Positions 6,552 to 27,768 of a stretch of 32,144 nt of DNA are shown here, one piece after another. How positions within the stretch are numbered: position 1 is the stretch's first letter; every line of letters begins with the position of its first letter. Under the pieces are notes generated by a model that was given only the letters and a program-made list of their open reading frames with translations, had not been told where the DNA came from and did not search any database. The DNA comes from Thermoplasmata archaeon. Lineage in GTDB: Archaea > Thermoplasmatota > Thermoplasmata > UBA10834. The stretch lies in the NCBI GenBank assembly GCA_041550275.1, contig JBFEPA010000002.1:1-32144 (forward strand), given 5' to 3'. A program made the position numbers and the translations under genes.

Positions 6552-8645
6552 ATGAATTCAGATGGACCACTCGGAGAGAATGCCACGGGAGAATCGCGGA
6601 TGCCGCACACGAAGGATTCACCGGCACCAAGGATCGGGGTTTTTGTATGTCATTGCGGCAGCAATATCGCTGGCACAGTTGACCCTTCCAAGGTAAGGGA
6701 GGCTGCCGAGAAGGTCCCAGGCGTTGTTATTGCAAAGGAGAACAAGTACACCTGCTCCGATCTCGGCCAGGATGAGATAATCAAGGCGATCAGAGAAAAC
6801 GATGTTGACAGGGTCGTCGTCGCCGCATGTTCCCCAAGGATGCACGAACCGACTTTCAGGAGTTGCATCCAGGAGGCCGGTCTGAACCCATATATGCTGC
6901 AAATGGTAAACCTCAGAGAGCAGTGTTCGTGGGTTCACTCTCGAGAGAAAGACAAGGCGACAGCGAAAGCTGCCGACCTGGTGAGGATGGGTATCGCGAA
7001 GGCGACAAAGCTCGTACCTCTGGAAGCCAGAGAGGTGCCCGTCGAGCAATCCTCGATGGTGATTGGAGCGGGCGTGGCAGGCATCCAGGCTGCACTCGAT
7101 TTGGCCCAGATGGGGTTTAAAGTGTATGTCGTCGAGTCCGAGCCGAGCATCGGAGGGCGCATGGCACAGCTGGACAAGACTTTCCCCACCGGTGATTGTG
7201 CAATTTGCATACTGGCCCCGAAGATGGTCGAGATGGCGAGACATCCAAACATCACGCTCTTTTCGTATTCAGAAGTGGAGGAAGTCAAAGGCTTCATAGG
7301 CAGCTACACTGTGAAGATAAGGAGAAAGGCCCGCTATGTCGTAGAGGACAAGTGCGTCGGTTGCGGTGTCTGCGTGGATGCTTGTCCAGTCAAGGTGGAT
7401 AACGAATTCGACATGGGCTTCGGGAAGAGAAAGGCGATTTACGTGCCATTCCCGCAAGCGGTGCCGCTCAAGTACACCATAGACAGAGACAACTGCATCT
7501 TCTTCAAGACCGGCAAGTGCAAAGCCTGTGTCAAGGCATGCGCGAATGAAGCGATTGATCACGAGATGGAGGACGAGTTGGTCGAGCTCAAGGTTGGCAC
7601 GATAATCTGCGCCACAGGGTTTGACACCTACATCCCGATGAAGCGCGGGGTCTACAAGTACTGGGAATACCAGAACGTGATCACGGCCCTTGAGCTCGAG
7701 CGATTGTTGAATGCATCCGGACCGACCGGTGGACATCTCATCAGACCTTCCGATGGGAAGACGCCGAAGAGAGTCGCATTCATACAGTGCGTCGGCTCGA
7801 GGAACAAGAAGATCGGCACAAACTACTGCTCACGCGTCTGCTGCATGTACTCGATCAAGAACGCGCAGATAATCAAGGAGCACGAGCCTGACACCGAGAT
7901 CGCCGTCTACTACAACGATATCCGGGCGTTTGGCAAAGGCTTCGAGGAGCTGTACCATCGCGTCAGAGAGGAATACGGGGTCGAGTTCATAAGAGGACGG
8001 CCTGCGAAGCTGAGCCAGAACGCAGATACAAATTCCATCACGATAAGAGCGGAGGAGACCCTGCTCAACAAGATCACCGAGAGAGAGTTCGACCTGATAG
8101 TGCTAGCGACTGGACTCACACCTTCCGAGGGAAGCAAGAGGATCAGCAAGATACTCTCCTTATCTCTCAGTCCAGATGGCTTCTTCATGGAGGCTCATCC
8201 GAAGCTAAGACCAGTCGATACGGCCATCGACGGCATCTATCTTGCCGGATGCGCTCAGGGTCCCAAGGACATCCCTGATTCAGTAGCCCAGGCGAAGGCG
8301 GCAGCCGCATCCGCAGCCTCGATTATGGCAGGTAAGAAGGTGAAGATCGAACCCTTGACCGCGCTGGTCGATGAGAACCTCTGCATAGGATGCGGGCTGT
8401 GCGTCGAGATGTGCCCCTATAGCGCCCCCGAGATTGTCGACAGCGATGGAAAAACTAAGGCGAAGATCATAGAAGCGCTCTGCCATGGGTGTGGAACCTG
8501 CGTTGCCGCATGCCCGCAGAAAGCCATAACAGCGAACCAGTTCACTGACGAGCAGATAGCATCCGAAATCGTCTCGGCTCTTGAAGGCGACGGAGTGGAA
8601 ACTGATAAGGCGAAGAGGGCCGCAAAGAAGGCGGAGGAGGCGTGA
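6552..8645 (+). CDS. hdrA: HdrA, canonical heterodisulfide reductase flavoprotein subunit (unit 1)
   Basis: All canonical parts are in one ORF. N-domain [15 protein letters not shown]...CSPRMH...[11 protein letters not shown] module [15 protein letters not shown]...[19 protein letters not shown]. Inserted ferredoxin [12 protein letters not shown] / C..C..C. QCVGSR...CSRVCC motif. C-terminal ferredoxin [12 protein letters not shown] / [15 protein letters not shown] 6552 follows GGAGGGG; ATG 6600 is an alternative start. Confidence 0.92.
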
Positions 8646-8647
8646 TT

Positions 8648-9226
8648 ATGGGAGAAGCTGAGAAGACCTTCATCAGTGGCCTGCACGAGAAGCTGGTCGA
8701 AGACAAGGTCATCGATGAGTCACAACTTGAGCCGGAATTCGCCAAGGAGATTGTGAAGCATGGAGGCAAGGATGTCATGACTTGTCTCCAATGCGGCAAC
8801 TGCACAGGTGTCTGTCCGATCAGCCTCAAGATCGACTATAAGACCAGGAGCATAATCAAGTTCTGTCAATTCGGGCTGAAGAAATTCACCCTCGGAACCA
8901 GGTGGGTTTGTGCCACGTGCTACAGGTGCTATGAGCACTGTCCGGCAGACATCAACCCAGCTGAGGTGATGATAGCGCTCAGGCACATCGCAGTCAAGGA
9001 GGGAGTGATACCTCCGTTCATCAAAATGGCCGCGACGAACCTAGTGAAGTATGGCCAGAGCGTGAAGCCAGACCCCGAGATAGAGCGGGTCAGGAAGGAG
9101 CTCGAGCTGGGTGAAATACCGTCACGGAGTCAGGAATACTCGAAGGTCGTCCGGGAGATCAATCTGCTGATTCGTTCGACCGGTTATGATAAGCTCATAG
9201 GCATAGAAAGCGAGGTGAAGATTTGA
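8648..9226 (+). CDS. hdrC: HdrC, 2x[4Fe-4S] subunit
   Basis: CLQCGNCTGVCP and CATCYRCYEHCP motifs, ~190 aa. ATG 8648 lies 7 nt after GGAGGAGG; the listed GTG at 8642 is too close to the SD. Confidence 0.88.
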   Translation: MGEAEKTFISGLHEKLVEDKVIDESQLEPEFAKEIVKHGGKDVMTCLQCGNCTGVCPISLKIDYKTRSIIKFCQFGLKKFTLGTRWVCATCYRCYEHCPADINPAEVMIALRHIAVKEGVIPPFIKMAATNLVKYGQSVKPDPEIERVRKELELGEIPSRSQEYSKVVREINLLIRSTGYDKLIGIESEVKI

Positions 9227-10140
9227 CCCAATATACCTACTTCTTCGGCTGCATCATACCTAACAGATACCCGGGGATTGAGTACGCTGTGAGAAGCATC
9301 TGCGGCAAGGACGGGTTCGACATTGACGTAGAGGACACAAAGGAGTTCTCCTGTTGCCCGGTTCCTGGCATCTTCTACTCATCCGATAAGAACACCTGGT
9401 TGCTCCTGGCTGCTCGGAACCTTACTCTCGCCCAGAACGAAAGGAGGGAGATCCTCACCGTCTGCAACGGTTGTCTCACCTCCTTGCTGAAGGCGACGGA
9501 GTATCTCGCCGACCCGAAGAACCTCGGCAAGGTGAATCGTGTACTCTCCCAGATAGGCAGAAAGTATACGGGCATTCCGATGAAGACCGAGGGACGGCGA
9601 CGCATAATGGAGCCTGTAAAGGTGCGGCATTATGTCGACGTGATGGTCAACGATATCGGCCTCGAAAGCCTTGCGGAGAAGACGAAGAGACCGCTCAAGA
9701 ACATCAGAGCAGCCGTGCACTACGGCTGCCATTACCTGAGACCAACAGAGAACCAGACGATCGACGAGCCGAATGATCCAGTCAACATAGACAGGATTAT
9801 CGAGGCTTGCGGAGCCACGAGTGTTGAGTACGAGGACAAGCTGGACTGCTGCGGCGCCGGCGGCGGCGTGCGGTCTCATGTTGTGGAATTGGCCAACTCG
9901 CTCACAGAGGACAAGTGCAGGAACATTGCCGCGGCGGGCGCGGACTGCATAGTAACTGGGTGTCCGTTCTGCCTACTCCAGTTCGACAACGCGCAGAAGT
10001 CCTTCACAAAGGAGGGGATACCGGTCATGCACATATCACAGTTCCAGGCCTTGGCCATGGGGGTAGACCCGATCTCACTCGGTTTCGATACCCATCACGT
10101 CTCTGCGCACTCATTCCTCAGGAAGATCAGGGGGAGCTGA
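9223..10140 (+). CDS. hdrB: HdrB, catalytic subunit with two CCG domains
   Basis: N-terminus YTYFFGCIIPNRYPGIE. First CCG set (GC..., SCCPVPG, CNGC) and second set (GCHYLRP, DCCGAGGG, GCPFC). TTG start at 9223 overlaps the hdrC stop (TTGA), with a GAGGTGA SD upstream. Confidence 0.9.
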   Translation: MTQYTYFFGCIIPNRYPGIEYAVRSICGKDGFDIDVEDTKEFSCCPVPGIFYSSDKNTWLLLAARNLTLAQNERREILTVCNGCLTSLLKATEYLADPKNLGKVNRVLSQIGRKYTGIPMKTEGRRRIMEPVKVRHYVDVMVNDIGLESLAEKTKRPLKNIRAAVHYGCHYLRPTENQTIDEPNDPVNIDRIIEACGATSVEYEDKLDCCGAGGGVRSHVVELANSLTEDKCRNIAAAGADCIVTGCPFCLLQFDNAQKSFTKEGIPVMHISQFQALAMGVDPISLGFDTHHVSAHSFLRKIRGS

Positions 10141-10142
10141 CG

Positions 10143-10586
10143 ATGGAGATGGAGTCGGAATCCAAGGAGGAGCGCGCGAGATACAGCCCGAAGATAGTCG
10201 CCTTCTGCTGCAACTGGTGCTCCTATGCTGGTGCTGATCTTGCAGGTACCACGAGGCTGCAGTACCCCACGAACGTCAGAATCATCAGGGTGATGTGTTC
10301 TGGCAGGGTCGACCCGGCCTTTGTGCTGAAAGCATTCTCACTCGGAGCGGACGGCGTGATCATCGCGGGCTGCCATCCATCAGACTGCCATTACATCAAC
10401 GGGAACGAGAAGGCTGCGATGAGAGGCACGTTCCTCTCGGAGTTCCTCGAGGACGCTGGCCTTGAATCGCAACGTTTCAGAGTCGAATGGATTGCTGGCT
10501 CTGAAGGACAGAAGTTCGCGAACGTCGTCAAGCGAATGGTTTCGGAACTGGAGGCGCTCGGCCCAATTGCCGAGGAGAGTGCGTAG
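10143..10586 (+). CDS. mvhD: MvhD-type [2Fe-2S] electron-transfer subunit, copy 1
   Basis: [24 protein letters not shown] and AGCHPSDCHY motifs, ~147 aa. ATG lies 2 nt after the hdrB stop, with a GGGGGAG SD. Confidence 0.9.
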   Translation: MEMESESKEERARYSPKIVAFCCNWCSYAGADLAGTTRLQYPTNVRIIRVMCSGRVDPAFVLKAFSLGADGVIIAGCHPSDCHYINGNEKAAMRGTFLSEFLEDAGLESQRFRVEWIAGSEGQKFANVVKRMVSELEALGPIAEESA

Positions 10587-10588
10587 TG

Positions 10589-13500
10589 ATGGAAGAGATG
10601 AACGTCGTCGGCGCAGCCCTGGTTGTGGGCGGGGGCCCCGCGGGGATGCAGGCCGCATTGGACCTCGCAGAATCTGGATACAAGGTCTACCTTTTGGAGA
10701 CGACACCAAGCATCGGGGGAACAATGGCTCAATTGGACAAGACTTTCCCCACGAACGACTGCTCGATGTGCATACTGTCACCAAAGCTCGTCGCCACTGG
10801 AAGGCACGAAAACATCACCCTTCTCACGAACGCTGAGCTCAAGGAAGTGAAAGGAGAGGCAGGCAGGTTCCACGTGACTGTGACAAGACATCAACGTTTC
10901 ATAGTAGAGGAGAAGTGCACGGGCTGTGGTGTGTGCGCGGAGCATTGTCCCATCGAAGGCGCCAACTCATTCGACAGAGACCTAGCACCTGCCAAGGCGG
11001 TGTACGTCCCCTTCCCTCAGGCAGTGCCGTTGATATACACCATCGACAAGGGCCTCTGCATCGGCTGCGGCATATGCGAGAAGTTCTGCGAGGCGGGAGC
11101 GATTGAATACAGCATGGACTCGGAAGTCAACGAGACCATTGAGGTTGGGGCAATCATTCTCGCCCCTGGCTACGAGGTCTATGACGCATCAAGGAAGAGC
11201 GTGTATGGTCATGGCGCTTACCCTAATGTCGTCAGCAACATCGAGTTCGAGAGGATGCTCAGCGCTTCAGGCCCGACAGAGGGGCACGTGATCAGACCTT
11301 CGGACGGCGATATCCCGACGAAGATCGCGTTCATACAGTGTGTAGGGTCTCGGGATGCCCAGACCCTGACCACCTACTGCTCGTCGTATTGCTGCATGGC
11401 AGCCCTGAAACAGGCTGTAATCGCTCAGGAGCACGTGCCGGGACTCAAGACAACTATATTCTTCATGGATACACGCGCGTTCGGGAAGGAATTCGAAGAG
11501 TATCTCCACCGGGCGGAGAATGAGTATGGAGTCAGGGTACTCAGAAATAACCGGATATCGAAGGTGCAACAAAACCAGGAGACGGGCGATCTTGTGCTCA
11601 GCTTCATAGATGGCGCTGACATCAGCGAGGAACACTTCGACATGGTCGTCCTCTCGGCTGGCGCCAAACCGCCAGAAATGGCGCATCAGCTCGCCAAGAT
11701 GCTTGGCATCAAGACGAACAAGTTTGGCTTCTGTGAGACGGATGAACTCTCGCCGGTCGACAGCTCTTCGCCCGGCATCTACGTTTGCGGAGCGTTCTCC
11801 GGTCCTAAGGACATCCCCGATTCGGTGGCCCAGGCAAGCGGCGCAGCGGGCAAGGCCGCAGCGCTGCTCGCCAGTCAGAGGGGGAAGCTAGTCACCAAGA
11901 GAGAGTACCCCGAGGAGAAGAACCTGGAAGGCCAGGAGCCGCGCTTAGGCGTGTTCGTATGTCATTGCGGCATAAACATCGGAGCGGTCGTGAATGTTCC
12001 AGAAGTGATGGAGTACGCATCGAAACTGCCAGGTGTGGTCTACGCTGAGGCGAACCTGTATACTTGCTCCCAGGATACACAGAAGAAGATCAAAGAGATG
12101 ATCGAGAAGCACGGCCTCAATCGCGTGATCGTGGCGAGCTGCACACCACGCACACACGAACCGCTGTTCCAGAACACCGTGAGAGAGGCCGGACTCAACA
12201 AGTACCTGTTCGAGATGGCCAACATAAGGGACCAATGTTCGTGGGTCCATCGGTTGGAACCCGAGGCTGCGACGAAGAAGGCGAAGGACTTGGTGAGGAT
12301 GGCTGTGGCCAAAGCCAGCATACTGGAGCCACTCCCCCAGCCGAAGATACCAGTCACTCCAGTTGCGCTCGTCATAGGTGGGGGGCTAAGCGGAATGACT
12401 GCCGCTCTGGAGATTGCGAAGGCGGGATACGAAGTACACTTGGTCGAGAAGCAGAAGGACCTAGGTGGTCATCTGAGGACGCTCTACTCAACCCTAGCCG
12501 GTGTGGACCCGCAGGAAACTTTGGCAAACCTGGCGAAGGAAGTGCTCAATCACGACAAGATCAAGGTTCATCTAGAGGACACCGTCGATGAGATCAAGGG
12601 ATACATCGGCAACTTCGAGACCGCTCTGAAGAGCGGCGAGAAGATAGAGCACGGCGCAATCGTGGTCGCGACGGGAGCGATAGAGTACGAACCCAAGGAA
12701 TATCTGTACGGTAAGCATCCCAGGGTAATTAGACAGACTGCCCTCGGAGAGATGCTGGCCAGCGGCAAGTTCGATGCTGAATGCGTTGTGATTGTCCAGT
12801 GTGTCGGATCAAGGAACGACGAGCACCCAAACTGCTCGAGGATCTGCTGCTCGACTGCGATGGCCAACGCTCTGAAGATCAAGAGAGGGTACCCGGACAC
12901 AGACGTGTTCGTTCTGTTCAGGGACATCCGTACGTATGGCTTCGCCGAGGAGAACTACAACGAGGCTGCCCGTCTTGGCGTCAGGTTCCTGAGGTACGAT
13001 CCCGCGACGCCGCCGGAGATCAGTGTGGACGAGGGAAAATTGGAGGTTCACATTGACGAGCAGTTCATCGAAGAGAAGATTGTAATCAAGCCGGATTACC
13101 TAGTGCTCAATGCAGCGGTCCATCCCAATCCCGACAACAAGGGCCTCGCGCAGTTACTTAAGGTCCCCCAGAACAAAGAGGGTTTCTTCCTTGAGGCCCA
13201 CATGAAGCTGAGGCCGGTCGATTTCGCGACCGACGGCATCTTTGTTTGTGGTCTCGCACACTCGCCGAGACTCATTGATGAGAGCATCTCACAAGCCTTG
13301 GCAGCCGCTGCCAGGGTAAACACCGTGTTGTCCAAGCCATTCATAGAGGCTGAAGGCGTAGTTAGTGTCGTGGATGAGGACAAGTGCATCGGATGCGGAA
13401 GATGTGAGGATGTCTGCGAATACGGGGCTCCCGTCGTGGAGGAGATCTCACCTGGCATTTTCAAGTCACGTATTAAGGAAGCGCTCTGCAAGGGCTGTGG

Positions 13501-13624
13501 CTCATGCGCAGTAGAATGCTGTACGAGAGCCATACGACCTAAGCACTTCAGAAGCGACCAGATAATCACGATGATAGAGGCGGCACTCGCCGATGAAGAG
13601 CCGGCACAGGAGGCGAAGACATGA
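10589..13624 (+). CDS. Tandem (double-module) HdrA-like flavo-iron-sulfur protein, copy 1 (unit 2)
   Basis: The N-half has the [12 protein letters not shown] module plus the inserted ferredoxin. It lacks the CHCG N-domain and the C-terminal ferredoxin. The C-half (from ~11930) has the CHCG N-domain ([14 protein letters not shown]), a second Rossmann fold ([27 protein letters not shown]), QCVGSR...CSRICC and the C-terminal ferredoxin ([11 protein letters not shown] / [11 protein letters not shown]). Confidence 0.88.
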
Positions 13625-15216
13625 CGGATGAAGGCTTCGAGCCAAACATAGTCGCCTTCTGCTGCAACTGGTGCTCCTACGCCGGCGCAGATCTGGCAGG
13701 TGTCAGCAGGATGCAGTACCCTCCGAACGCGCGAATAATACGCGTCATGTGCTCGGGCAGGATAGAACCATACTTCGTGCTCAGGGCGCTCGAGCTCGGC
13801 GCTGACGGTGTGCTCGTCGCGGGATGCCACATAGGTGACTGTCACTACATCTCCGGGAATGTCGAGGCGGAGAAGAGGATGAAAGCCACGCAGGAGATGC
13901 TGGACGTGGTAGGCATTGGGAGAGACCGCATGAGACTGGAATGGATTTCCGCCTCCGAGGGACAGAAATTCGCCTCGACGATGAAGGAGTTCACAGACAG
14001 TATCCGCGAGCTAGGCCCCAACCCGATGCCAAGGCTTGCGAAGAAAGTGTACGACCCCGCCAAGCTGAAGTCGAGAGTCGATCACCTGATCGAGGACACT
14101 GGTGCCTTTGACTGCGTCGAGTGCGGCAAGTGCACGACGGTATGCCCGGTAGCCAAGTACGATTCGGAGTTCGCGCCCAGGACCATCGTGCTGAAGGCGA
14201 CGGAGGGACAGGCAGATTCAATCGTCGCCAGCAAAGATATCTGGACCTGCATCACATGTGAACAGTGCAACTCGATGTGCCCGTACAAGGTAGACTACTC
14301 TGGATTCATAAGAGGACTGAGAACCGAAGCTGCGGCAAAGGATGCAACGCCCGCCTGCAGTCAGGGCGGCCTCATGCAGGGGATGATGCGCATACAGGCG
14401 CACGGCGACTTCAAGCAGAACAGGCTGGGATGGCTGACCCCGGAGTTGAAGATCGCGGACAAGGGCGACGTATTCTACTTCACTGGATGCGTAGCGTATT
14501 TCGATGCCGTCTTCAGCGACAGAGAGCTCAACCTCGCTGGCATACCACAGGCGGTAGTCAAGATAATGAACAGCGCTGGCATTACCCCAGTCGTGAGCAA
14601 CGACGAGGTGTGTTGCGGACACGATCTTAACTGGACTGGCGACGAGGAGGGGCTGCAGCGGCTCATGAAGAAGAATGTGGAGGTCATCAAAGCCTCCGGA
14701 GCGAAGACCGTCGTGTTCTCGTGCCCTGAGTGTATGAGGACCTTCGATATGGACTATCAGGACTTCTTGGGTGACTTCGACTTCGAGATGACCCACGTGT
14801 CCGAGTTCGTTGACAATCTAATCCAAGATGGGAAACTGAAGTTCAAGAAGGGCAGTGACAAGCTAACCTTCCAGGATTCGTGCAGACTCGGCAGGCACCT
14901 TGGTATCTACGACCCGCCGAGGAACGCCATGAAGGGCGTCGGAGCGAATGTCGTGGAGATGGAGAACACGAGAGACAAGGCGATATGCTGCGGTGTGAGT
15001 TCTTGGGCCACATGCGACGATATTGCGCGCAAGCTGCAGGTGGAGAGGTTGAAAGAGGCGAAGAAGACTGGAGCTGACTGCCTTGTCACGGGATGCTACA
15101 AGTGTCTGATCCATCTGGCTTGTGCCCGAGACAACAAGCTCGAAGGAGTGCCTAAGGATCAGGTAGACATCAAGATCAAGGACCTCAGTGTAGCGATAGC
15201 GGAGGCGTTGGAATGA
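13621..15216 (+). CDS. MvhD::HdrC-like::HdrB-like (HdrD-type, two CCG domains) triple fusion
   Basis: Residues 1-~135 are MvhD ([32 protein letters not shown]). They are followed by [12 protein letters not shown] / [12 protein letters not shown] (HdrC-like). Then come two CCG sets (FTGC, VCCGHD, SCPEC; DSCRLG, ICCGVSS, TGCYKC). ATGA overlap with the upstream gene. Confidence 0.85.
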
Positions 15217-19961: not shown

Positions 19962-19965
19962 GGAC

Positions 19966-20790
19966 ATGACGCAGAAGCATCACACCGCTCACCACGGCAA
20001 GAAGCACGAGACTGACAATGAGTGGGAGCCGAAGATCGTCGGTTTCCTCTGCAACTGGTGCTCGTACGCCGGCGCTGACCTGTGTGGCGTCAGCAGGTTC
20101 CAGTATCCGACGAACATACGCCTCGTCAGAGTGATGTGCTCTACGCGAGTCAGCCCACACCTCGTGCTCGATGTCTTCGAGGCAGGCGCGGACGGCATAC
20201 TCGTTGGAGGATGTCACATCAACGACTGTCACTACATGACCGGCAACTTCCACACTGAGAAGCGCGTGAACCTCATGAAGAGGCTGCTCAAAGAGGCTGG
20301 GATAGACGAGAGCCGATTGAGACTCGAGTGGGTCTCCGCATCCGAAGGGGAGAAGTTCTCCAAGGTGGTCACGGAATTCACAGAGGAGATCCAGAAGCTG
20401 GGACCGAGTCAAGTGCTCTCGGACGACATGGTGAAGACGAAGATCTCGGCCGCTGACGACGCCTCCGAGACATTCAGATTGAAAGCCCTGGTGGGTAAGG
20501 AGTTCAACCTCCTTACTAAGGGGAACGCATACGGTGAGAAGCTGGACCCTGACAAACTCGCGGGCATCATCGATGCCGCTGCTGAGGACGAGTTCGAAAG
20601 GGCGCTCATACTGGAGCTTGCGAGGATAAGGCCCATGTCGGTCAAGCAGTTGGGAATGGTTATGGACGTCCCGACAGACAAGATACTCAGGCACATCGTT
20701 CTGCTCAGGCAGAACAGCAAGATTGCGATGGAACATCCAGAGGGATTCACTCCGGTATACAAGACCATCGCTATTGGAGGTGAGCAGTGA
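19966..20790 (+). CDS. MvhD-type subunit, copy 3, with His-rich N-tail and C-terminal winged-helix-like extension
   Basis: N-tail MTQKHHTAHHGKKH. MvhD core ([33 protein letters not shown]). A ~127-aa Cys-free extension is homologous to ORF 24286-24669. ATG lies 4 nt after the upstream stop, with a GGAGGAGGTG SD. Confidence 0.85.
   Translation: MTQKHHTAHHGKKHETDNEWEPKIVGFLCNWCSYAGADLCGVSRFQYPTNIRLVRVMCSTRVSPHLVLDVFEAGADGILVGGCHINDCHYMTGNFHTEKRVNLMKRLLKEAGIDESRLRLEWVSASEGEKFSKVVTEFTEEIQKLGPSQVLSDDMVKTKISAADDASETFRLKALVGKEFNLLTKGNAYGEKLDPDKLAGIIDAAAEDEFERALILELARIRPMSVKQLGMVMDVPTDKILRHIVLLRQNSKIAMEHPEGFTPVYKTIAIGGEQ
20407..20787 (+). other. Domain-level: winged-helix-like C-terminal extension of MvhD copy 3
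   Basis: ERALILELARIRPMSVKQLGMVMDVPTDKILRHIVLLRQNSKIAMEHPEGFTPVYKTI has a helix / helix-turn-helix / beta-wing pattern. It aligns by eye with ELERNLLLLQMEQQSKTVHELHDATGIPKPEIVHHIIALKRWRMVEQVGTTGQSPQYKAV of the free ORF. Confidence 0.55.
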
Positions 20791-23700
20791 TGGCAGCAAG
20801 TGACAAGGTCGGTGCAGTCATGGTGGTTGGAGGCGGCATATCGGGCCTGCAGTCCTCCCTTGATCTGGCCGATTCTGGATTCAAGGTATATCTCGTTGAG
20901 AAGCAACCCAGCATAGGCGGCACGATGGCCCAGCTGGACAAGACATTCCCCACGAACGACTGTGCCATGTGCATTATGGCGCCCAAACTCGTGTCGACGG
21001 GGAGACACCACAACATCGAGTTGGTGACGAATGCTGACATCCTGGCGGTGGAAGGCAAGGCGGGCGATTTCACGGTCACCGTCAAGCAGAGGGCGTTGAG
21101 GGTTGACCCCACCAAGTGCACTGGCTGTGGCTCGTGCGCTCAGACCTGCCCGATCGAGACCTCCGATGAGTACAACGAGAGCACGAAGATACGCAAGGCG
21201 ATCTATGTTCGGTACCCACAGGCGGTCCCGCTGGTATACTCCATCGACAAGGACAAGTGCATAGGCTGCGGCATATGCGCAGAGGAGTGCAAGGCCAAAG
21301 CAGTCGTCTATGATCAGGAGGAGAGCACCTCGGAGATCAAAGTGGGCTCGATCATCCTCTCGCCCGGCTTCGACGAGTTCAACGCGCGTCTGAAGGGGGA
21401 ATACGGATACGGCGTCTACAAGAACGTCGTCAACAGCATAGAGTTCGAGAGGATGCTCAGCGCCACGGGACCGTACTTCGGCACAGTCATGCGTCCCTCG
21501 GACGGCGACATCCCGGAGAAGATAGCTTTCATACAATGTGTCGGCTCCAGAGACGAGCAGGTGGGAAACGAGTACTGCTCAGGCGTCTGCTGCATGTACT
21601 CGATCAAGGAGGCCATAATAGCCAAGGAGCATGGAGGGAATATCAAACCCAAGATATTCTTCATGGACATGAGGGCGTTTGGCAAGGAATTCGATGAGTA
21701 CTACAACAGAGCGCAGAACGAGTACGGCATCGAGTTCGTGCGCTCGAGAGTCGCATCCGTATTCGAAGACCCCGAAACGAAGAATCTGATCGTGAAATAC
21801 GTCGAGAAGGGGGAGCCGAAGGAAGAGGAGTTCGGCCTCGTGATCCTTGCCGTAGGCCTCAGGCCACCGGCGGATGCCGAGGCTCTCAGCAAGGTCATTG
21901 GATTCGAGCTGAACTCAGACGGGTTCTGCAAGACGACGACGCTAGAACCGGTCAGTTCCTCGAAGGCAGGCGTCTTCGTCAGCGGCGCATTCTCATCGCC
22001 CAAGGACATCCCGATGACCGTTGCCGAGGCGAGCGGAGCCGCTGCGAAGGCGGCCACGGAGATAGCGTCTGCGAGGGACAGCCTCGTCACCAAGAAGGAA
22101 TACCCAGCGGAGCTGGACATAACAGATCAGGAACCGAGGATAGGCGTGTTCGTATGTCATTGCGGCATAAACATCGGAGGCGTCGTCAAGGTGCCCTCCG
22201 TAACGGAGTATGCCCGGACCCTGCCGAACGTCGCGTACGCTGAAGAGAACCTGTACACGTGCTCCCAGGACACTCAGGAGAAGATCAAGGAGATGATCAA
22301 GGAGCACGACCTCAACCGGGTCGTGGTAGCGAGCTGCACTCCACGGACGCATGAGCCGCTGTTCCAGAACACGATAAAGGAGGCGGGTCTGAACTCGTAC
22401 CTGTTCGAGATGGCGAACATACGCGACCAGTGCTCGTGGATTCACATGCACGAGGCCGAGTCGGCTACGAAGAAGGCGAAGGACCTCGTTCGGATGGCCG
22501 TTGCGAAGGCCCGGTTGCTCGAGCCGCTGGAGAACCTGACCATCGACGTCAACCAGCAGGCGCTGGTGATAGGTGGAGGCGCCACGGGGATGGCTGCCGC
22601 CCTTGAGCTGGCGAAGCAGGGAGTAAAGGTCCACCTGGTCGAGAAGGAGAAGGAGCTCGGAGGCAACATGCGCAAGCTACACTATCTGCCGTCCGGAGAG
22701 GACCCGACGGAGCACGCTGAGGCGATGGCCAGGGAGGTCACCTCCAACGGCAACATCACCGTGCACACGGGAACCGGCATCAAGATGATCGAAGGATACG
22801 TGGGCAACTTCAAGACAGCGCTGGAGAGCGGAGAGGAGATAGAGCATGGCGCTGTGATACTGGCGGTGGGAGGACAGGAGTACAAGCCGAAGGGAGAGTA
22901 CCTTTATGGCGAGAACCCCAACGTCCTCACTCTCCTCGAGTTCAAGGAGAAGCTGAAGAAAGGTGAGGCAAAGGGTGATTCGTATGTGTTCATCCAGTGC
23001 GTCGGCTCGCGTGAGGAAGGCCACCCGAACTGTTCGCGCGTATGCTGCACGGGCACGATGACCGCGGCGATAAAGATTAAGGAGAAGAACCCCGACGCCG
23101 AGGTGTACGTCCTCTACAGGGACATACGGACATACGGCTTCAGAGAGGCCTACTACAAGGACGCCGCCGAGAAGGGCGTCACGTTCATCAGGTTCGAGGA
23201 CGACGTCAAACCGAAGGTCGAGGACAAGGGAGGCAAGCTGCAGGTGACCGTCACGGACGAGGACACTGACAAGGAGGTTGTGCTGACATCTGACTACCTG
23301 GTACTCGCATCGGGAACACGACCATACCCAGAGTCGGAGGCGCTCGCGCCGATGCTCAAGGTCCCGATGACCAAGGAGGGCTTCTTCCTGGAGGCGCATA
23401 TGAAGCTGAGGCCAGTAGATTTCGCAACTGAGGGAGTGTATCTAGCAGGCCTGTCGCACGGCCCCAAGTTCCTCGATGAGAGCATCGGACAGGGGTTGGC
23501 TGCAGTCGCGCGCGCGATGACGATCCTGTCGAAGAAGACGCTCGAAGCGGAAGGCATCGTGGCAAGTGTGGACGAGACGCTTTGCGACGGATGCGGCATA
23601 TGCGTCCCGACGTGCGAGTACAAGGCGCTCGAAATCATCGCCGACAAGAAGGATGAGACGAAGAAGACTCTGGACCTCAACATCGGCCTGTGTAAGGGCT

Positions 23701-23828
23701 GCGGCGCGTGCGTTGGCTCATGCCCATCGGGCGCGCTCACGCAGAAAGGATTCAGGGATGAGCAGATCGTCGCCATGATCGATGCAGCGCTTGAGGATGA
23801 TGCGGAGAAGCAGGAGGTGAGGCAATGA
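20790..23828 (+). CDS. Tandem (double-module) HdrA-like flavo-iron-sulfur protein, copy 2 (unit 4)
   Basis: Same layout as 10589-13624. N-half VVGGGISGLQSSLDL...[19 protein letters not shown] plus inserted ferredoxin. C-half [49 protein letters not shown]...CSRVCC, C-terminal CDGCGICVPTC / CKGCGACVGSCP. ATG overlaps the upstream TGA (TGATG), with a GGAGGTGA SD. Confidence 0.88.
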   Translation: MAASDKVGAVMVVGGGISGLQSSLDLADSGFKVYLVEKQPSIGGTMAQLDKTFPTNDCAMCIMAPKLVSTGRHHNIELVTNADILAVEGKAGDFTVTVKQRALRVDPTKCTGCGSCAQTCPIETSDEYNESTKIRKAIYVRYPQAVPLVYSIDKDKCIGCGICAEECKAKAVVYDQEESTSEIKVGSIILSPGFDEFNARLKGEYGYGVYKNVVNSIEFERMLSATGPYFGTVMRPSDGDIPEKIAFIQCVGSRDEQVGNEYCSGVCCMYSIKEAIIAKEHGGNIKPKIFFMDMRAFGKEFDEYYNRAQNEYGIEFVRSRVASVFEDPETKNLIVKYVEKGEPKEEEFGLVILAVGLRPPADAEALSKVIGFELNSDGFCKTTTLEPVSSSKAGVFVSGAFSSPKDIPMTVAEASGAAAKAATEIASARDSLVTKKEYPAELDITDQEPRIGVFVCHCGINIGGVVKVPSVTEYARTLPNVAYAEENLYTCSQDTQEKIKEMIKEHDLNRVVVASCTPRTHEPLFQNTIKEAGLNSYLFEMANIRDQCSWIHMHEAESATKKAKDLVRMAVAKARLLEPLENLTIDVNQQALVIGGGATGMAAALELAKQGVKVHLVEKEKELGGNMRKLHYLPSGEDPTEHAEAMAREVTSNGNITVHTGTGIKMIEGYVGNFKTALESGEEIEHGAVILAVGGQEYKPKGEYLYGENPNVLTLLEFKEKLKKGEAKGDSYVFIQCVGSREEGHPNCSRVCCTGTMTAAIKIKEKNPDAEVYVLYRDIRTYGFREAYYKDAAEKGVTFIRFEDDVKPKVEDKGGKLQVTVTDEDTDKEVVLTSDYLVLASGTRPYPESEALAPMLKVPMTKEGFFLEAHMKLRPVDFATEGVYLAGLSHGPKFLDESIGQGLAAVARAMTILSKKTLEAEGIVASVDETLCDGCGICVPTCEYKALEIIADKKDETKKTLDLNIGLCKGCGACVGSCPSGALTQKGFRDEQIVAMIDAALEDDAEKQEVRQ

Positions 23829-24283
23829 GCAGCGCAACGCCCAACGCCGGTGGTCAGCCCAAGGCGGAGGAAGAGGATTTCGAGCCGAAGATAATCGTGT
23901 TCTGCTGCAACTGGTGTTCATACGCTGGCGCTGACCTCGCAGGGGTCAGCAGGCTGCAGATGCCCCCGTACTTCAGGGTGATAAGGGTCATGTGCTCTGC
24001 TAGAGTCGACCCTGAGTTCGTCCTGAGGGCGATTCAGAAGGGGGCAGATGGAGTCCTCGTCGCAGGATGTCATCCAGCGGACTGCCACTACATCGGAGGT
24101 AACTACAGGACGCGGAGGAGAGTTGCGCTCCTTCAGATGCTGCTCCAGCAGTTCGGCTATGACCCTGGCAGGCTTAAACTGGAATGGATATCCGCTGGTG
24201 AGGGAGAGAAATTCCAGAAGACCATTGTCGAGTTCACGAACACGATCAACGAGCTAGGGCCGTCTCCGATGGGTGGTGACTGA
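23825..24283 (+). CDS. mvhD: MvhD-type [2Fe-2S] subunit, copy 4 (adjacent to the hydrogenase genes)
   Basis: [38 protein letters not shown] overlap with the upstream gene. Confidence 0.9.
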   Translation: MSSATPNAGGQPKAEEEDFEPKIIVFCCNWCSYAGADLAGVSRLQMPPYFRVIRVMCSARVDPEFVLRAIQKGADGVLVAGCHPADCHYIGGNYRTRRRVALLQMLLQQFGYDPGRLKLEWISAGEGEKFQKTIVEFTNTINELGPSPMGGD

Positions 24284-24285
24284 AC

Positions 24286-24669
24286 ATGACACCGAGGGAC
24301 GGTAGGATCAGGGCGGCGCTGAGGACGCTCGAGGGTGAGCGCATAAGGTGGCTCCTTGGTAAGAAAGAGATGCTTACGACGGGTGAGAACGTGTTCGGCG
24401 AGACAATCACTGACGCGAGATACAGCTTCATACTCCAGAAGGCGGCCGCTGTGGAACTGGAGCGGAACTTGCTGCTTCTTCAGATGGAGCAGCAGTCCAA
24501 GACCGTGCATGAACTGCACGACGCCACAGGCATACCGAAGCCAGAGATCGTCCATCACATCATCGCCCTCAAGAGATGGAGGATGGTCGAGCAGGTCGGC
24601 ACGACGGGGCAGTCGCCGCAGTACAAGGCTGTTCCCAAAAGCATATCCTCGGATGAGGAGGTGAGCTGA
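24286..24669 (+). CDS. Small Cys-free winged-helix-like protein of unknown function (free homologue of the MvhD copy 3 extension)
   Basis: 127-aa ORF tightly coupled on both sides (2 nt after the mvhD stop, 1 nt before the mvhG ATG), with a GGTGGTGA SD. wHTH-like pattern in the C-terminal half. No match to a named family that I can recognise. Confidence 0.7.
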   Translation: MTPRDGRIRAALRTLEGERIRWLLGKKEMLTTGENVFGETITDARYSFILQKAAAVELERNLLLLQMEQQSKTVHELHDATGIPKPEIVHHIIALKRWRMVEQVGTTGQSPQYKAVPKSISSDEEVS

Positions 24670-24670
24670 G

Positions 24671-25687
24671 ATGGCAGACAAGATTAAGATTGCGCAGTAC
24701 TGGGGCGCTGGATGCGGAGGATGCGACGTCGCCCTGCTGGACATAGACGCGAAGATACTGGATGTACACGCCATTGCCGAGGTGGTCTTCTGGCCAATCG
24801 GGTTCGACGGCAAGCTCTCCGAGATAGAGGCGATGCCTGACAAGTCGATCACGGTGTCGTTCTACAACGGCGCGATAAGGAACAGCGAGAACGAGCATGT
24901 CGCGAAGGTGCTTCGAGAGAAGTCTGCGGTCATGATAGCATTCGGATCTTGCGCATGTTTCGGCGGAACGCCAGGCTTGGCGAACGTGACGAACAGGGAG
25001 GAGATCTTCCAGACTGTGTACAAGGACACCGTTTCCACTGACAACCCTGACTTCGTGACGCCACAAACGCATTGCACGGTTCCAGAGGGCGAGGTTGACC
25101 TCCCTGTGTTCTATGAAAGCGTCAAGACGCTCGACGAGGTCGTGGATGTTGACTACTTCATGCCTGGATGCCCACCAACGGTGAACCTCATCGCTTTGGC
25201 GGTCGACGCGGTGGCAAAGCATGTTACGGAAGGCGCGGACCTGCCTCCGAAGGGCACCATCATCGCCTCGGACAAGACGCTTTGCGACGAATGTGACCGC
25301 GAACGCGTCGAGAAGGATAGGCGAATCGAGAGGATCTACCAGTCGTACGAGATCAAGGCGGATCCGAAGAAGTGCCTTCTCGACCAGGGAATCATCTGCA
25401 TAGGCCCCGCGACGAGAGCTGGCTGCGGATCCATGTGTCCGAAAGCCAACATGCCCTGCAGGGGATGCATGGGCCCGACGAAGGCCGTCATGGACCACGG
25501 TGGAAGCATGCTGAGCGCACTGTCGTCGCTCCTGAATATCACAGATTCGGAGTCAAAGTTAAGTGAGGAGCAGATAATGGAACTAATGATGCAGGTGAAG
25601 GATCCGCTCGGAACCTTCTATGCCTTCACGCTCCCGAAGTCGCTGCTCAAGAGGACTGTGACCGAGAAGCGCAAGAAGAAGGGGTGA
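24671..25687 (+). CDS. mvhG: MvhG, small subunit of F420-non-reducing (Mvh-type) [NiFe] hydrogenase
   Basis: N-terminal WGAGCGGCDVALLD proximal-cluster motif, GSCACFGG, MPGCPP, and C-terminal CIGPATRAGCGSMCP...PCRGCMGP cluster motifs. Confidence 0.92.
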   Translation: MADKIKIAQYWGAGCGGCDVALLDIDAKILDVHAIAEVVFWPIGFDGKLSEIEAMPDKSITVSFYNGAIRNSENEHVAKVLREKSAVMIAFGSCACFGGTPGLANVTNREEIFQTVYKDTVSTDNPDFVTPQTHCTVPEGEVDLPVFYESVKTLDEVVDVDYFMPGCPPTVNLIALAVDAVAKHVTEGADLPPKGTIIASDKTLCDECDRERVEKDRRIERIYQSYEIKADPKKCLLDQGIICIGPATRAGCGSMCPKANMPCRGCMGPTKAVMDHGGSMLSALSSLLNITDSESKLSEEQIMELMMQVKDPLGTFYAFTLPKSLLKRTVTEKRKKKG

Positions 25688-27207
25688 TGCACATGCCAGG
25701 ACCAATAATCAACGACACAACGACGAAGACTACGGAGAAGAAGCTGACGATTGACCCAATCACGAGGCTCGAGGGACACGGCAAGATAGAGATATTCCTG
25801 AACGACCAGGGCAACGTGGCGAATGCATATCTCCAGGTCCCCGAACTCAGAGGATTCGAACGCTTCTGCATCGGCAGGCATGTGCAAGAACTACCCGTGC
25901 TGACCAACAGGTTGTGTGGCGTTTGTCCTGCGGCGCATCACATCGCGTCGACGAAGGCTCTCGACGCGGTGTTCAACGCAGAACCCACTGAGACTGCGAA
26001 GAAGCTCAGGGAGCTGTTCTACATGGGACAGTATACCCACAGCCACATAGCACACTTCTACGCCCTAGCTGCGCCTGACTTCGTGCTCGGACCGTCCGCA
26101 CCGGCCAACAAAAGGAACGTCCTAGGTGTAGTCGACGCCGTGGGTGTAGAGATCGGCGGAGAGGTCATCAAGCACAGGTCGTACGGTCAGAAGGTTCAGG
26201 AGATCGTCGGCGGAAGGGCGACTCATCCGTGCTTCGGTCTTCCAGGCGGAGTGTCCAAGCAGATAAGCGAGGAAGAGCGCGCCCAGATGGAAGAGATGGC
26301 GAAGTCCTGCGTCGAGTTCGGGAAGTTCACCGTGAAGCTCTTTCACGATGTCGTGCTGGCCAATCAGGATTACATGAACCTTGTCCTGAACCAGGACGCA
26401 TACTATCTCGAATCGTACTACATGGGCATGGTTGACAAGAACAACAAGTCGAACTTCTACGACGGTGACATCCGCGTGGTGGACCAGACTGGCAAGGAGG
26501 TAGTGAAGTTCAAGCCGAGCGAGTATCTCGATGTCATCGCAGAACACGTCGAGCCTTGGACTTACATGAAGATGCCGTTCCTGAAGCAGGTGGGATGGAA
26601 AGGCTTCTCCGTCGGCCCGTCAAGTGGAATCTACAGAGTCGGACCGCTCGGCAGAATCAACGTTTGCGAGGGTTACACGACACCGCTTGCTCAAGCCGAA
26701 TACGCGGCACTGGCGAAGACGGTAAAAGACCTGGGAGTGACAGGACCAGTCCATCACACACTCGCGTACCACTGGGCGAGGGTGGTCGAGCTGCAGTACG
26801 CCACAGAGAGGATGCTCGAGCTGGCGAGCGACAAGAGCATTACGAGCGACGATACCCGTGGCGAAGTCAACGAACCCACAGAAGGCGTCGGCATATGCGA
26901 GGCACCGAGGGGGACTCTGATACACCACTATGCCTCAGATAAGGAAGGGCTGTGCACGATGATTAACATGATCGTGGCTACGACGAACAACTACGCTGCC
27001 ATCAATACCAGTATCACCCAGGCGGCGAAGGCGCTGATCAGGAATTGGGAGATCTCCCCCGGCCTGCTGAACAAGGTCGAGATGGCGTTCCGATGCTACG
27101 ACCCGTGCAACTCATGCGGGACTCATGCGCTCAACGGTTCGCCCGCGCTGGAGATAGCGGTGCGGCGCGCAGACGGGTCCACACTCGAGAGGCAGAGAAA
27201 CTTCTGA
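25687..27207 (+). CDS. mvhA: MvhA, large subunit of Mvh-type [NiFe] hydrogenase
   Basis: TRLEGHGKIEI, N-terminal ligand motif RLCGVCPAAHH, and C-terminal DPCNSCGTH followed by a 26-residue tail (a protease-cleaved extension is expected). Start is ambiguous among GTG 25684, ATG 25687 and ATG 25693. Confidence 0.93.
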   Translation: MHMPGPIINDTTTKTTEKKLTIDPITRLEGHGKIEIFLNDQGNVANAYLQVPELRGFERFCIGRHVQELPVLTNRLCGVCPAAHHIASTKALDAVFNAEPTETAKKLRELFYMGQYTHSHIAHFYALAAPDFVLGPSAPANKRNVLGVVDAVGVEIGGEVIKHRSYGQKVQEIVGGRATHPCFGLPGGVSKQISEEERAQMEEMAKSCVEFGKFTVKLFHDVVLANQDYMNLVLNQDAYYLESYYMGMVDKNNKSNFYDGDIRVVDQTGKEVVKFKPSEYLDVIAEHVEPWTYMKMPFLKQVGWKGFSVGPSSGIYRVGPLGRINVCEGYTTPLAQAEYAALAKTVKDLGVTGPVHHTLAYHWARVVELQYATERMLELASDKSITSDDTRGEVNEPTEGVGICEAPRGTLIHHYASDKEGLCTMINMIVATTNNYAAINTSITQAAKALIRNWEISPGLLNKVEMAFRCYDPCNSCGTHALNGSPALEIAVRRADGSTLERQRNF

Positions 27208-27219
27208 TGTTTTCGAACG

Positions 27220-27252
27220 CGAGGGGAAACCCCCCTCGACAACATGTTTTTT
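27220..27252 (+). terminator. Hairpin CGAGGGG-aaacc-CCCCTCG followed by a T6 run (terminator/attenuator-like)
   Basis: A 7-bp perfect stem (27220-27226 / 27232-27238) begins 13 nt after the mvhA stop. T6 lies at 27247-27252; oligo-T tracts are the usual archaeal termination signal. Confidence 0.35.
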
Positions 27253-27282
27253 AAGTTCAACCAGGATGAGAGGACCGACTCC

Positions 27283-27768
27283 ATGACTCAAACCGAGGAT
27301 CCGAACGCAAAGAAGACTCTTGTGGTAGGTGTCGGCAACCCCATACTCTCGGATGATGGCGTGGGGATTCACATCGCGAGGAGACTCAGGGAGATGGGAA
27401 TCTCCGGCATCGATGTCGAGGAGCTGCCAGCGAGCGGGCTGGAACTGCTGGACATGGTCCTCGACTACGACCGCGTAGTCATCATAGATGCCATAAGGAC
27501 TGAGGGAGGCACCCCGGGACAGTTCTACATCCTGGAGGAGAGCGATTTCGAGAGGACCGTTCACGGCGCCTCACCGCACGGGATTAACATAGCCACGGCT
27601 TTGGCCCTCGGGAGACAGCTGGTAAACGACAGGATGCCGACCGATACGCAGTTCATCGCGATCGAGGTGGCAGACATAGTCAATGTCAGCGAGAGCATGA
27701 CACCTGCAGTGGCAGCGGCGGTCCAATTGGTCGTTGACAAGGTCGTGGCCGAACTGAGCAAGCCATAA
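27283..27768 (+). CDS. [NiFe]-hydrogenase maturation endopeptidase (HycI/HybD/FrhD family)
   Basis: LVVGVGNPILSDDGVG, VVIIDAI and HGASPHG motifs. ATG 27283 is preferred because it has a GAGAGG SD and lies downstream of the hairpin/T6. ATG 27244, which contains the T6, is the alternative. Confidence 0.85.
   Translation: MTQTEDPNAKKTLVVGVGNPILSDDGVGIHIARRLREMGISGIDVEELPASGLELLDMVLDYDRVVIIDAIRTEGGTPGQFYILEESDFERTVHGASPHGINIATALALGRQLVNDRMPTDTQFIAIEVADIVNVSESMTPAVAAAVQLVVDKVVAELSKP

Follow-up and report, generated by a model that had tools for sequence, protein, structure and literature searches.

We analyzed a 32,144-nucleotide (nt) stretch of DNA (hereafter, the window) from a Thermoplasmata archaeon that has not been cultured and belongs to the Ca. 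Gimiplasmatales (UBA10834)/Methanomassiliicoccales radiation (assembly GCA_041550275.1, contig JBFEPA010000002.1, positions 1 to 32,144), which contains an array of heterodisulfide reductase (hdr) and hydrogenase (mvh) genes. The array is part of a hydrogenase island on a single contig, in which hypBFCAD are followed by 14 hdr/mvh genes, a maturation protease gene, and a convergent hypE. Together with the protease gene, the array forms a train of 15 plus-strand genes (6552-27768), encoding 4 MvhD modules, 4 Cys197-type HdrA flavin modules, 4 N-domains, 2 CCG units, 1 GltD/NfnB-like insert, and the hydrogenase subunits MvhG and MvhA. With the start codons chosen in an earlier, database-free reading of the same DNA (hereafter, the sequence-only reading), the genes overlap by 4 or 1 nt or are separated by gaps of 1-6 nt, the only larger spacers being those of 158 nt (15217-15374) and 75 nt (27208-27282), as had been described. 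A GGAGG-like Shine-Dalgarno sequence precedes nearly all starts.

The sequence-only reading had parsed the train into 4 units, each with one flavin adenine dinucleotide (FAD) module, one N-domain, and one MvhD module. Regular-expression counts reproduce these numbers, with exactly 4 occurrences each of the FAD-module motif (genes at 6552, 10586, 15375, and 20787), the N-domain motif GVFxCHCGxNI with C[ST]PRxH and CSW[VI]H (genes at 6552, 10586, 18087, and 20787), and the MvhD signature VMCS...GCHxxDCHY (genes at 10143, 13621, 19966, and 23825). Profile searches (Pfam, NCBIfam) agree with the domain map and with the four-unit parsing: in the Pfam scan, FlpD/MvhD was found 4 times (E from 2e-53 to 6e-56), CCG was matched in two stretches each in 9223-10140 and 13621-15216, and the last three genes of the train matched Oxidored_q6, NiFeSe_Hases, and HycI. 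The domain map confirms the proposed content of one hydrogenase, one NAD(P)H-type module, and two CCG units. The count of one FAD module per unit, however, holds for the motif and not at the level of hidden Markov models, where units 2-4 each contain two thioredoxin reductase (TrxR)-type Rossmann domains, for a total of 7, plus the two Rossmann folds of the GltD insert.

Unit 1 opens with a canonical type I HdrA (HdrA1, 6552-8645), which is 59% identical to chain 5ODC_A of the Protein Data Bank (PDB; E 3.7e-270) and in which all 27 cluster cysteines of that chain, as well as Cys197 and E356/K409, are conserved. It is followed by HdrC1 with 2x[4Fe-4S] (8642-9226; Pfam Fer4_9, NCBIfam CoB_CoM_SS_C at 122.8 bits, under the cut-off of 160), HdrB1 with two CCG domains (9223-10140; Pfam CCG in 2 stretches, E 4.8e-30, NCBIfam CoB_CoM_SS_B at 317.5 bits, under the cut-off of 345), and MvhD1 (10143-10586; Pfam FlpD, E 3e-54). 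Unit 2 consists of a fused type II HdrA (HdrA2t, 10586-13624), assigned by alignment to 5ODC, and an MvhD::HdrC/HdrB-like fusion (13621-15216) with 2x[4Fe-4S] and two CCG domains (Pfam FlpD, E 5.7e-56; CCG, E 5.5e-26; Fer4_17). Against the PDB, the fusion matches MvhD chains (E ~1e-53) and HdrC (E ~1e-10), and its amino acids (aa) ~150-531 have an HdrD-type layout, with Fer4_17/Fer4_8 at aa 164-225 and then CCG twice; unlike the classical HdrD, it carries an MvhD fused at the N-terminus. In NCBIfam, it resembles TfrB, LdhH, GlpC, and DsrK, all far under the respective cut-offs.

In unit 3, HdrA is distributed over two genes. The first encodes an N-half-type protein (HdrA3N, 15375-18080) which, aligned to 5ODC, has C197, E356/K409, the inserted ferredoxin (Fd) domain, and the TrxR cluster, and lacks the N-domain and the C-terminal Fd domain. 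A GltD/NfnB-like insert of ~470 aa (about aa 150-625; ~nt 15822-17250) falls within the inserted ferredoxin domain's second cluster motif; its boundaries and insertion point were set by comparison with insert-free orthologues. The insert matches Pfam Fer4_20 and Pyr_redox_2 (E 1.2e-49), exceeds the cut-off of NCBIfam PRK12771 (551.7 bits versus 516), and aligns with NfnB structures at E 1e-95 to 1e-98 (4YLF_B at E 2.5e-98, also 5JCA_L); its GGGNAA...YRR sequence is a motif of the NADPH type. The second gene encodes a C-half-type protein (HdrA3C, 18087-19961) with the N-domain, TrxR cluster, and C-terminal Fd domain but no C197, in which E356/K409 are retained, unlike in the other C-halves. HdrA3C also has an acidic, low-complexity insertion of ~55 aa (aa ~342-395; 19110-19270) with an ERRR(R)RRGR motif, which is kept together with its poly-Arg core in orthologues from Gimiplasmatales to Methanomassiliicoccales metagenome-assembled genomes (MAGs) and is missing from the other second halves. 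The unit closes with a fusion of MvhD to a helix-turn-helix (HTH)/winged-helix-like part at aa 159-268 (19966-20790; Pfam FlpD, E 2.2e-53).

Unit 4 (20787-27207) combines a second fused type II HdrA (HdrA4t, 20787-23828), MvhD4 (23825-24283; Pfam FlpD, E 2.4e-55), a free HTH/winged-helix-like protein of 127 aa (24286-24669; Pfam HTH_5, E 7.5e-6, 26.2 bits versus a cut-off of 22), and the two subunits of a [NiFe]-hydrogenase. The small subunit MvhG (24671-25687) matches Pfam Oxidored_q6 and NCBIfam VhuG (E 2.2e-65). The large subunit MvhA (25684-27207) is group 3c/3d-like (PDB 7T2R_D, E 3.7e-112; 5ODC_F, MvhA, E 1.9e-111; NCBIfam VhuA, E 1.6e-122), with the motifs RLCGVCPAAHH and DPCNSCGTH and a C-terminal extension.

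Pseudo-heterodimeric HdrAs and their flavin sites

Alignment of the individual modules to 5ODC revealed that, in each of units 2-4, the full canonical set of HdrA cluster cysteines is split over two halves with strict complementarity. In the first halves, namely, aa 1-445 of gene 10586, the whole of gene 15375, and aa 1-443 of gene 20787, Cys194/Cys197 are retained along with the TrxR-domain cluster and the eight cysteines that belong to the inserted ferredoxin domain. The second halves are their mirror image, carrying the N-domain, TrxR cluster, and C-terminal Fd domain and lacking Cys197. This is the makeup of type II HdrAs, which are fused in 10586-13624 and 20787-23828 and split in the pair 15375-18080 and 18087-19961. 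The complementary halves explain the 1:1:1 count of FAD modules, N-domains, and MvhDs; the count stands, although not as a new stoichiometry, being the published signature of the pseudo-heterodimeric type II HdrA (PMC9012536, PMC12054007). The type II name comes from PMC12054007, and the pseudo-heterodimer pattern was described earlier for anaerobic methanotrophic archaea (ANME) and Moorella (PMC9012536).

E356 and K409 (5ODC numbering) have been proposed as marks of the bifurcating HdrA flavin (PMC12054007). HdrA1, the three first halves, and the second half encoded by 18087-19961 contain both residues, whereas both are lost in the C-halves of 10586-13624 (G/A) and 20787-23828 (K/T). Thus, the N-half of HdrA2t combines C197 and E356/K409 with the inserted Fd domain and TrxR cluster, its C-half has the N-domain, TrxR cluster, and C-terminal Fd domain with neither C197 nor K409 (Ala instead), and HdrA4t repeats this half-complementarity with Thr in place of K409 in the C-half. 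The pattern at the K409 position is kept in orthologues: K,A in 23 for HdrA2t, K,T in 22 for HdrA4t, and K in 40 for the gene 18087-19961. Four or five HdrA flavins are hence predicted to be of the bifurcation type, to which the insert adds one of the NfnB type.

In such a pseudo-heterodimer, the first half would provide Cys197, the E356/K409 flavin site, and the inserted domain as the ferredoxin exit, and the second half would provide the N-domain cluster along with the ferredoxin domain at the C-terminus as the MvhD entry. Each core would accordingly possess one entry from its cognate MvhD through the C-terminal Fd domain and one low-potential exit, from the N-domain/Cys197 cluster to the inserted Fd domain. 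The HdrA and MvhD paralogues display parallel patterns of similarity, units 2 and 4 being the closest pair in both (56-57% for HdrA, 61% for MvhD), which points to ancient co-duplication of cognate HdrA-MvhD pairs. Given that orthologues are 70-95% identical and paralogues 30-57%, the units appear to have long been kept distinct.

Predicted operon structure, conservation, and probable sharing of the hydrogenase

The sequence-only reading had envisaged a single promoter for the train. This is not supported: a B recognition element (BRE)/TATA-like element occurs at two places, upstream of gene 1 (P1, CAACGAAACCTATA, 6407-6420, 132 nt 5' of the gene) and upstream of gene 7 (P2, AAACGAAACACATA, 15262-15275, 100 nt 5' of the gene). 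With one mismatch allowed, the pattern CAACGAAACnnATA is matched nowhere in the window but at 6407 and 15262, in either case on the plus strand, compared to 0.07 matches expected. In orthologous loci, which we refer to by L-numbers, the motif lies 143-155 nt 5' of gene 1 in L003, L006, L008, L021, L027, and L034 and ~110-140 nt 5' of gene 7 in about 25 loci, and is almost absent elsewhere in those loci. Across 18 aligned loci, the P2 motif is the sole conserved block in the otherwise divergent spacer between genes 6 and 7, apart from a short conserved TAC(C/G)G ~24 nt after it. Judging by its sequence and position, the motif is likely to be a BRE/TATA promoter, and its retention at both places in orthologous loci speaks for two operons. 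Operon A would comprise genes 1-6, with all CCG modules, and operon B genes 7-14, which include those for the hydrogenase, the insert, and the HTH-like modules; transcription may terminate ahead of the protease gene, at a T-rich stretch (27240-27252) that follows mvhA. A scan of 14900-15500 for sigma-70 promoters and intrinsic terminators found nothing, as expected in an archaeon, and no Rfam family reached its gathering score in the window, so the 100-130 nt leaders are not known riboswitches. A second CGAAAC copy is found within a TTTCGAAA palindrome (~6388-6395), 20 nt before the CAACGAAAC of P1; this site could be an operator or a second BRE-like site.

To trace the array, we searched with gene 15375-18080 as the query, scanning one genome per species, and compared the loci ORF by ORF (open reading frame). 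The 53 loci returned are all from uncultured Thermoplasmata or Methanomassiliicoccales MAGs, with three closed chromosomes, and over 25 independent assemblies from Thermoplasmata (Ca. Gimiplasmatales/UBA10834 and a Methanomassiliicoccales family) share the same order with flanking hyp genes. L017 (RBG_19FT_COMBO_56_21) and L035 (UBA10834) link the clade to Ca. Gimiplasmatales, and the array is also found in a genome of the Methanomassiliicoccales family JACIVX01 (L054). Mis-assembly or chimerism was considered and ruled out, the same order recurring in more than 25 assemblies from different studies, including the closed chromosomes CP070748.1, CP070732.1, and OY970070.1; GC content and GC skew are even along the train.

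The full order of hypD, genes 1-15, and hypE is found in L001 and L003-L008, at 65-95% identity, and the same order minus the GltD insert in, among others, L012, L015, L021, L027-L030, and L032. Three-unit arrays (L014, L016, and L018) are missing unit 1, so that hypD abuts gene 5, and five-unit arrays are present in L011 and L017. Arrays in which MvhD and HdrCB are unfused occur in Methanomassiliicoccales-labelled MAGs, and the two are split in L036, L046, and L054. The insert occurs only in L001-L008, the window's own subclade, and in the distant L009, most orthologous arrays having a plain first half of 430 aa. The NAD(P)H module reported for unit 3 is therefore lineage-restricted, an add-on outside the conserved design. 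To judge from this distribution, the array is old and modular.

Several of these loci have peculiarities of their own. In L009, which comes from a distant Thermoplasmata MAG of hot-spring origin, a single HdrA of 1505 aa (9887-14401) unites the GltD-bearing first half with a second half and is followed by MvhD, with an MvhD/HTH/MvhG/MvhA/protease block 5 kb off on the opposite strand and a second, divergent MvhGA-like pair upstream. L054 has a gene for a 136-aa protein without a Pfam hit (5528-5938) between the HdrCB gene and the unit-3 first half, where the window has the 158-nt spacer. In the long-read MAGs L036 and L046, several hdrA/mvh genes look fragmented; in the one case inspected, a selenocysteine or pyrrolysine codon splitting the unit-4 HdrA of L046 (14361) was considered and rejected in favor of a frameshift-type assembly error (VYLHR*EQ versus VYSIDKDK).

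Collectively, these observations incline us, at somewhat better than even confidence, to the view that the array encodes separate, co-regulated bifurcating complexes that share one MvhAG and probably also the CCG units. One cytoplasmic MvhAG-type [NiFe]-hydrogenase would serve four paralogous HdrA-MvhD cores, each through its own MvhD: one with a canonical homodimer-type HdrA, HdrC, HdrB, and MvhD, and three asymmetric pseudo-heterodimers, two fused and one split. Electrons from H2 would be bifurcated to ferredoxin and to higher-potential acceptors that differ between the cores, namely, two disulfides (via HdrBC and via the MvhD-HdrCB fusion), NADP+ (via the insert), and, for unit 4, presumably a CCG unit with genes located outside unit 4 itself, the arrangement known from Methanomassiliicoccales. 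The sequences themselves show the anatomy, the complementarity of the domains, the conservation, the promoter motifs, and the modular gain and loss of units; which MvhD docks on MvhAG, what the substrates are, and which way electrons flow in this scheme are inferred. The block-wise gain and loss of units favors separate complexes over one obligate particle, whereas the split of acceptors (operon A) from the donor (operon B), combined with the shared promoter motif and the hyp frame, suggests that the complexes use the same hydrogenase and exchange CCG partners.

Some of the data sit uneasily with this view. The unit boundaries are overlapped as well (1 nt between MvhD1 and HdrA2t, 4 nt between MvhD-wH, the MvhD::HTH/winged-helix-like fusion, and HdrA4t), which would equally suit an assembly of fixed stoichiometry. 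Four MvhDs per one MvhAG are unexplained if all of them dock, and the binding of MvhD1-3 to the hydrogenase is an assumption on which its sharing would depend. Furthermore, HdrB1 and HdrC1 lie just under the NCBIfam equivalog cut-offs, and the host lineages are reported to be without Mcr, which bears on the identity of the disulfide substrate.

Given the translational coupling down the whole train and the conservation of gene order across a wide phylogenetic range, all four units might instead form one obligate heteromeric super-complex coupling H2, NAD(P)H, ferredoxin, and one or two disulfides, as the sequence-only reading had contemplated. Such an assembly would account for a single hydrogenase serving four MvhDs and for donor and acceptors residing in different operons, which calls for some cross-operon partnership; very large Hdr super-assemblies are indeed reported from methanogens (PMC13518236, PMC13580544). 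The number of units, however, is 3, 4, or 5, whole blocks having come and gone, and only a minority of genomes have the GltD module, so that the components are singly dispensable. The two predicted promoters also argue against one particle, as does the fact that the two halves of each pseudo-heterodimer already hold one full canonical set of cluster cysteines. We therefore regard the super-complex as quite improbable.

A stronger contender, if still an unlikely one, is that only unit 4 is linked to the hydrogenase and that units 1-3 use MvhD as a generic [2Fe-2S] connector to modules encoded elsewhere, with partners such as F420H2, formate, reduced ferredoxin, or a MetFV-type methylene-tetrahydrofolate reductase. 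In that case, the train would be a set of functionally unrelated Hdr complexes placed beside a hydrogenase. MvhD does occur in hydrogenase-free complexes, including the Methanosarcina HdrA2::MvhD, the Moorella MetFV-HdrABC-MvhD, and FdhB/Molybdop clusters (PMC9012536, PMC12054007). The Moorella HdrA is a fused double HdrA like that of unit 2 (PMC9012536), the best NCBIfam match of HdrA1 is of the HdrA2 type, and Ca. Gimiplasmatales are predicted to have a tetrahydrofolate Wood-Ljungdahl pathway. Yet none of about 50 loci encodes an alternative donor module in cis, the hyp genes and the hydrogenase protease bracket the whole array, and the promoter motif is common to both operons.

HTH-like proteins and the genes flanking the train

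The C-terminal 110 aa of the MvhD fusion 19966-20790 (window 20440-20770) and the free protein 24286-24669 are 29% identical over their shared length without gaps (E 3e-12), and neither of these two sequences contains cysteines. The fused copy has no Pfam hit. The family is small, an exhaustive profile search of 1.84 billion representative proteins yielding 179 relatives at E <= 1e-3; a word-indexed search with the HTH part of 19966-20790 gave 11 hits, mostly truncated. Among 149 family representatives scanned, 70 have FlpD/MvhD N-terminal to the HTH-like domain in the same polypeptide and 50 match HTH_5. Other fusions comprise HdrA::MvhD::HTH proteins of 685-810 aa and a Fer4::MvhD::HTH protein from Bathyarchaeota (RLI10842.1). 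The AlphaFold2 (AF2) model of the HTH-like protein (mean predicted local distance difference test, pLDDT, 75.8) is all-helical, with no wing predicted, and a Foldseek search with it against the PDB returned no significant match (best E 1.6). We found no paper on this MvhD-associated family in the searchable literature, which is itself incomplete.

The HTH-like part is an MvhD-associated module that may act as either a docking subunit or a regulator, and its frequent fusion to MvhD argues for an enzyme-associated role. One could propose that these proteins are transcription factors, the free one being an autoregulator acting on the shared promoter motif and the MvhD::HTH fusion a redox sensor using its [2Fe-2S] cluster, which would leave unit 3 without a catalytic MvhD. 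Consistent with this, 24286-24669 matches Pfam HTH_5 above the cut-off and the PDB ArsR 8QKF at E 1.4e-4, family members are annotated as ArsR regulators in sources, and the motif common to the two promoters could be an operator. Nevertheless, nearly half of the scanned members of this tiny family of 179 are fused to MvhD, in some cases within HdrA::MvhD::HTH polypeptides that are enzymes and not regulators; the fusion occupies the exact place of a plain MvhD in the other units; the fused copy is acidic (isoelectric point 5.4); and the AF2 model has no significant match to any winged-HTH regulator. A role as transcription factors is thus very doubtful.

In unit 3 the HTH-like domain is part of the MvhD polypeptide, in unit 4 it is encoded beside mvhD, and other archaea have it attached to MvhD or to HdrA-MvhD. 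As a bolder version of hydrogenase sharing, which we put forward tentatively and hold to be unlikely as a whole, the MvhAG hub might be time-shared by 3-5 interchangeable HdrA-MvhD "cartridges" that pass H2 electrons to ferredoxin and to differing acceptors (two disulfides, NADP+, or another), the HTH-like domain being an unrecognised subunit that selects or docks the cartridges on the hydrogenase or couples the redox state of MvhD to transcription of the two operons. If the domain is a subunit, models that treat MvhD as a simple electron wire will need revision.

Upstream of the train, the maturation block on the plus strand starts with a hypB-like Ni-insertion GTPase gene (1601-2251; Pfam cobW/HypB/UreG, E 7.8e-23), followed by the carbamoyltransferase gene hypF (2115-4469; HypF_C_2, E 7.7e-59, zf-HYPF, Sua5, and Acylphosphatase), for which the limits given are those of the ORF, the real start probably being near 2250. 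Then come hypC (4271-4732; HupF_HypC, E 1.5e-25; ORF limits, the match spanning the last 64 codons only), hypA (4736-5110; HypA, E 6.4e-24), and hypD (5103-6188; HypD, E 9e-125). HypD is encoded immediately 5' of the train in L001-L008, L014, L016, and L018, and hypB/C/A/D precede the train in L014 and L018. At the other end, the hydrogenase maturation endopeptidase gene (27283-27768, plus strand; Pfam HycI; NCBIfam hydrog_prot at 107.7 bits, cut-off 47) is followed by hypE (27788-28849, minus strand; Pfam AIRS/AIRS_C), which is convergent with the train, completes the [NiFe]-hydrogenase maturation set, marks the end of the island, and is kept 3' of the train in more than 20 loci.

Beyond hypE lies a gene for a MobA-like nucleoside triphosphate transferase of the molybdopterin-guanine dinucleotide synthesis type (28954-29595), which is found at the same position in many related loci (L012, L015, L018, L021, L022, L025, L028, L029, L032, and L052). 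Two overlapping minus-strand ORFs (29561-30861 and 30917-31981) encode hydrophobic, probably membrane proteins and are adjoined by a PAS-domain histidine kinase gene (HATPase_c, PAS_4).

Relation to known Hdr systems

The sequence-only reading had been unaware of a characterized system with this composition, and no paper on it was found in the searchable literature, the coverage of which is incomplete (the original Gimiplasmatales paper of Hu et al., for example, is outside it). Papers on these lineages merely list "HdrA-D, MvhAGD", and literature under the lineage names and on MvhD with winged-helix/ArsR proteins, again with incomplete coverage, gave no account of the array or of the MvhD-HTH association. 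Although HdrAs of types II and III are catalogued, no biochemical study of any of them exists according to PMC12054007. The array represents a compact, widely conserved natural set of one canonical, two fused, and one split, GltD-bearing HdrA, each with its own MvhD and all with one hydrogenase, and is a good target for asking how electrons are routed in pseudo-heterodimeric HdrAs. It is relevant, too, to how the uncultured relatives of Methanomassiliicoccales gain energy, a matter on which papers tick only "HdrABC/MvhADG present".

Among the closest known systems is the electron-bifurcating HdrABC-MvhAGD complex (PDB 5ODC), every subunit of which is covered by unit 1 together with MvhG/MvhA; the MvhD proteins match its chains at E ~1e-53 and MvhA at E 1.9e-111. 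In contrast to the genes of that complex, hdrACB-mvhD and mvhGA lie here in separate operons, 14 kb apart, and three further HdrA-MvhD cores stand beside unit 1. Whereas that complex belongs to hydrogenotrophic methanogens, the host lineage considered here is reportedly non-methanogenic, so that the heterodisulfide of coenzymes M and B (CoM-S-S-CoB) may not be the substrate.

The HdrAs of units 2-4 resemble the type II HdrAs of ANME, methanogens, and Moorella in having two TrxR domains and complementary N-domain/Cys197 and ferredoxin domains (PMC9012536, PMC12054007). The order of the halves, however, is opposite to that in ANME HdrA3/4, the Cys197-bearing, N-domain-free half coming first, and the partners are MvhD with either the HdrCB fusion or MvhGA rather than FdhB/Molybdop. 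Furthermore, two bifurcating flavins are proposed for most type II HdrAs (PMC12054007), whereas in units 2 and 4, with second halves that lack K409/E356, only one flavin looks bifurcation-competent. The NfnB/GltD insert has also been published (PMC9012536, PMC12054007): a module of ~470 aa is embedded within the inserted ferredoxin domain of type III HdrAs, namely, ANME-1 HdrA9-11, the Bathyarchaeota cluster, and the HdrL-type proteins of sulfate reducers, and the Bathyarchaeota type III cluster likewise includes mvhADG (PMC12054007). In the window, by contrast, the insert resides in a half-HdrA without the N-domain and C-terminal Fd domain that is paired with a separate second-half gene, making it a split type II/III hybrid, and the GxGxxA...YRR motif is of the NADPH type, while NAD+ is inferred for the type III HdrAs studied in PMC12054007.

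Finally, the HdrA of Methanomassiliicoccales is unusually long, with two FAD sites, and is encoded next to mvhDGA, with hdrBC elsewhere (Borrel et al., PMC4153887). Unit 4 has this hdrA-mvhDGA order with no adjacent hdrBC, and HdrA4t orthologues in Methanomassiliicoccales MAGs are 62-66% identical, in the same gene order. That unit 4 has no acceptor of its own is thus not unusual: acceptor-less units are normal in this radiation, which implies the use of CCG modules from outside the unit. Unlike the Methanomassiliicoccales cluster, unit 4 has the extra HTH-like gene between mvhD and mvhG and is the last unit of a 3-5 unit array. As the full array is also found in the Methanomassiliicoccales family JACIVX01 (L054), the simple hdrA-mvhDGA of the cultured gut strains may be what is left of a larger array after reduction. 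All the types of HdrA parts (I, II, and III), the hdrA-mvhDGA cluster, and HdrD-like CCG proteins are already catalogued. What is new is the conserved array of 3-5 units within an island framed by hyp genes, together with the split type II/III hybrid and the MvhD-HdrCB fusion. Also new are the contrast between two second halves that have lost K409 and a third that retains it, the predicted two-promoter structure, and the MvhD-associated HTH-like family.

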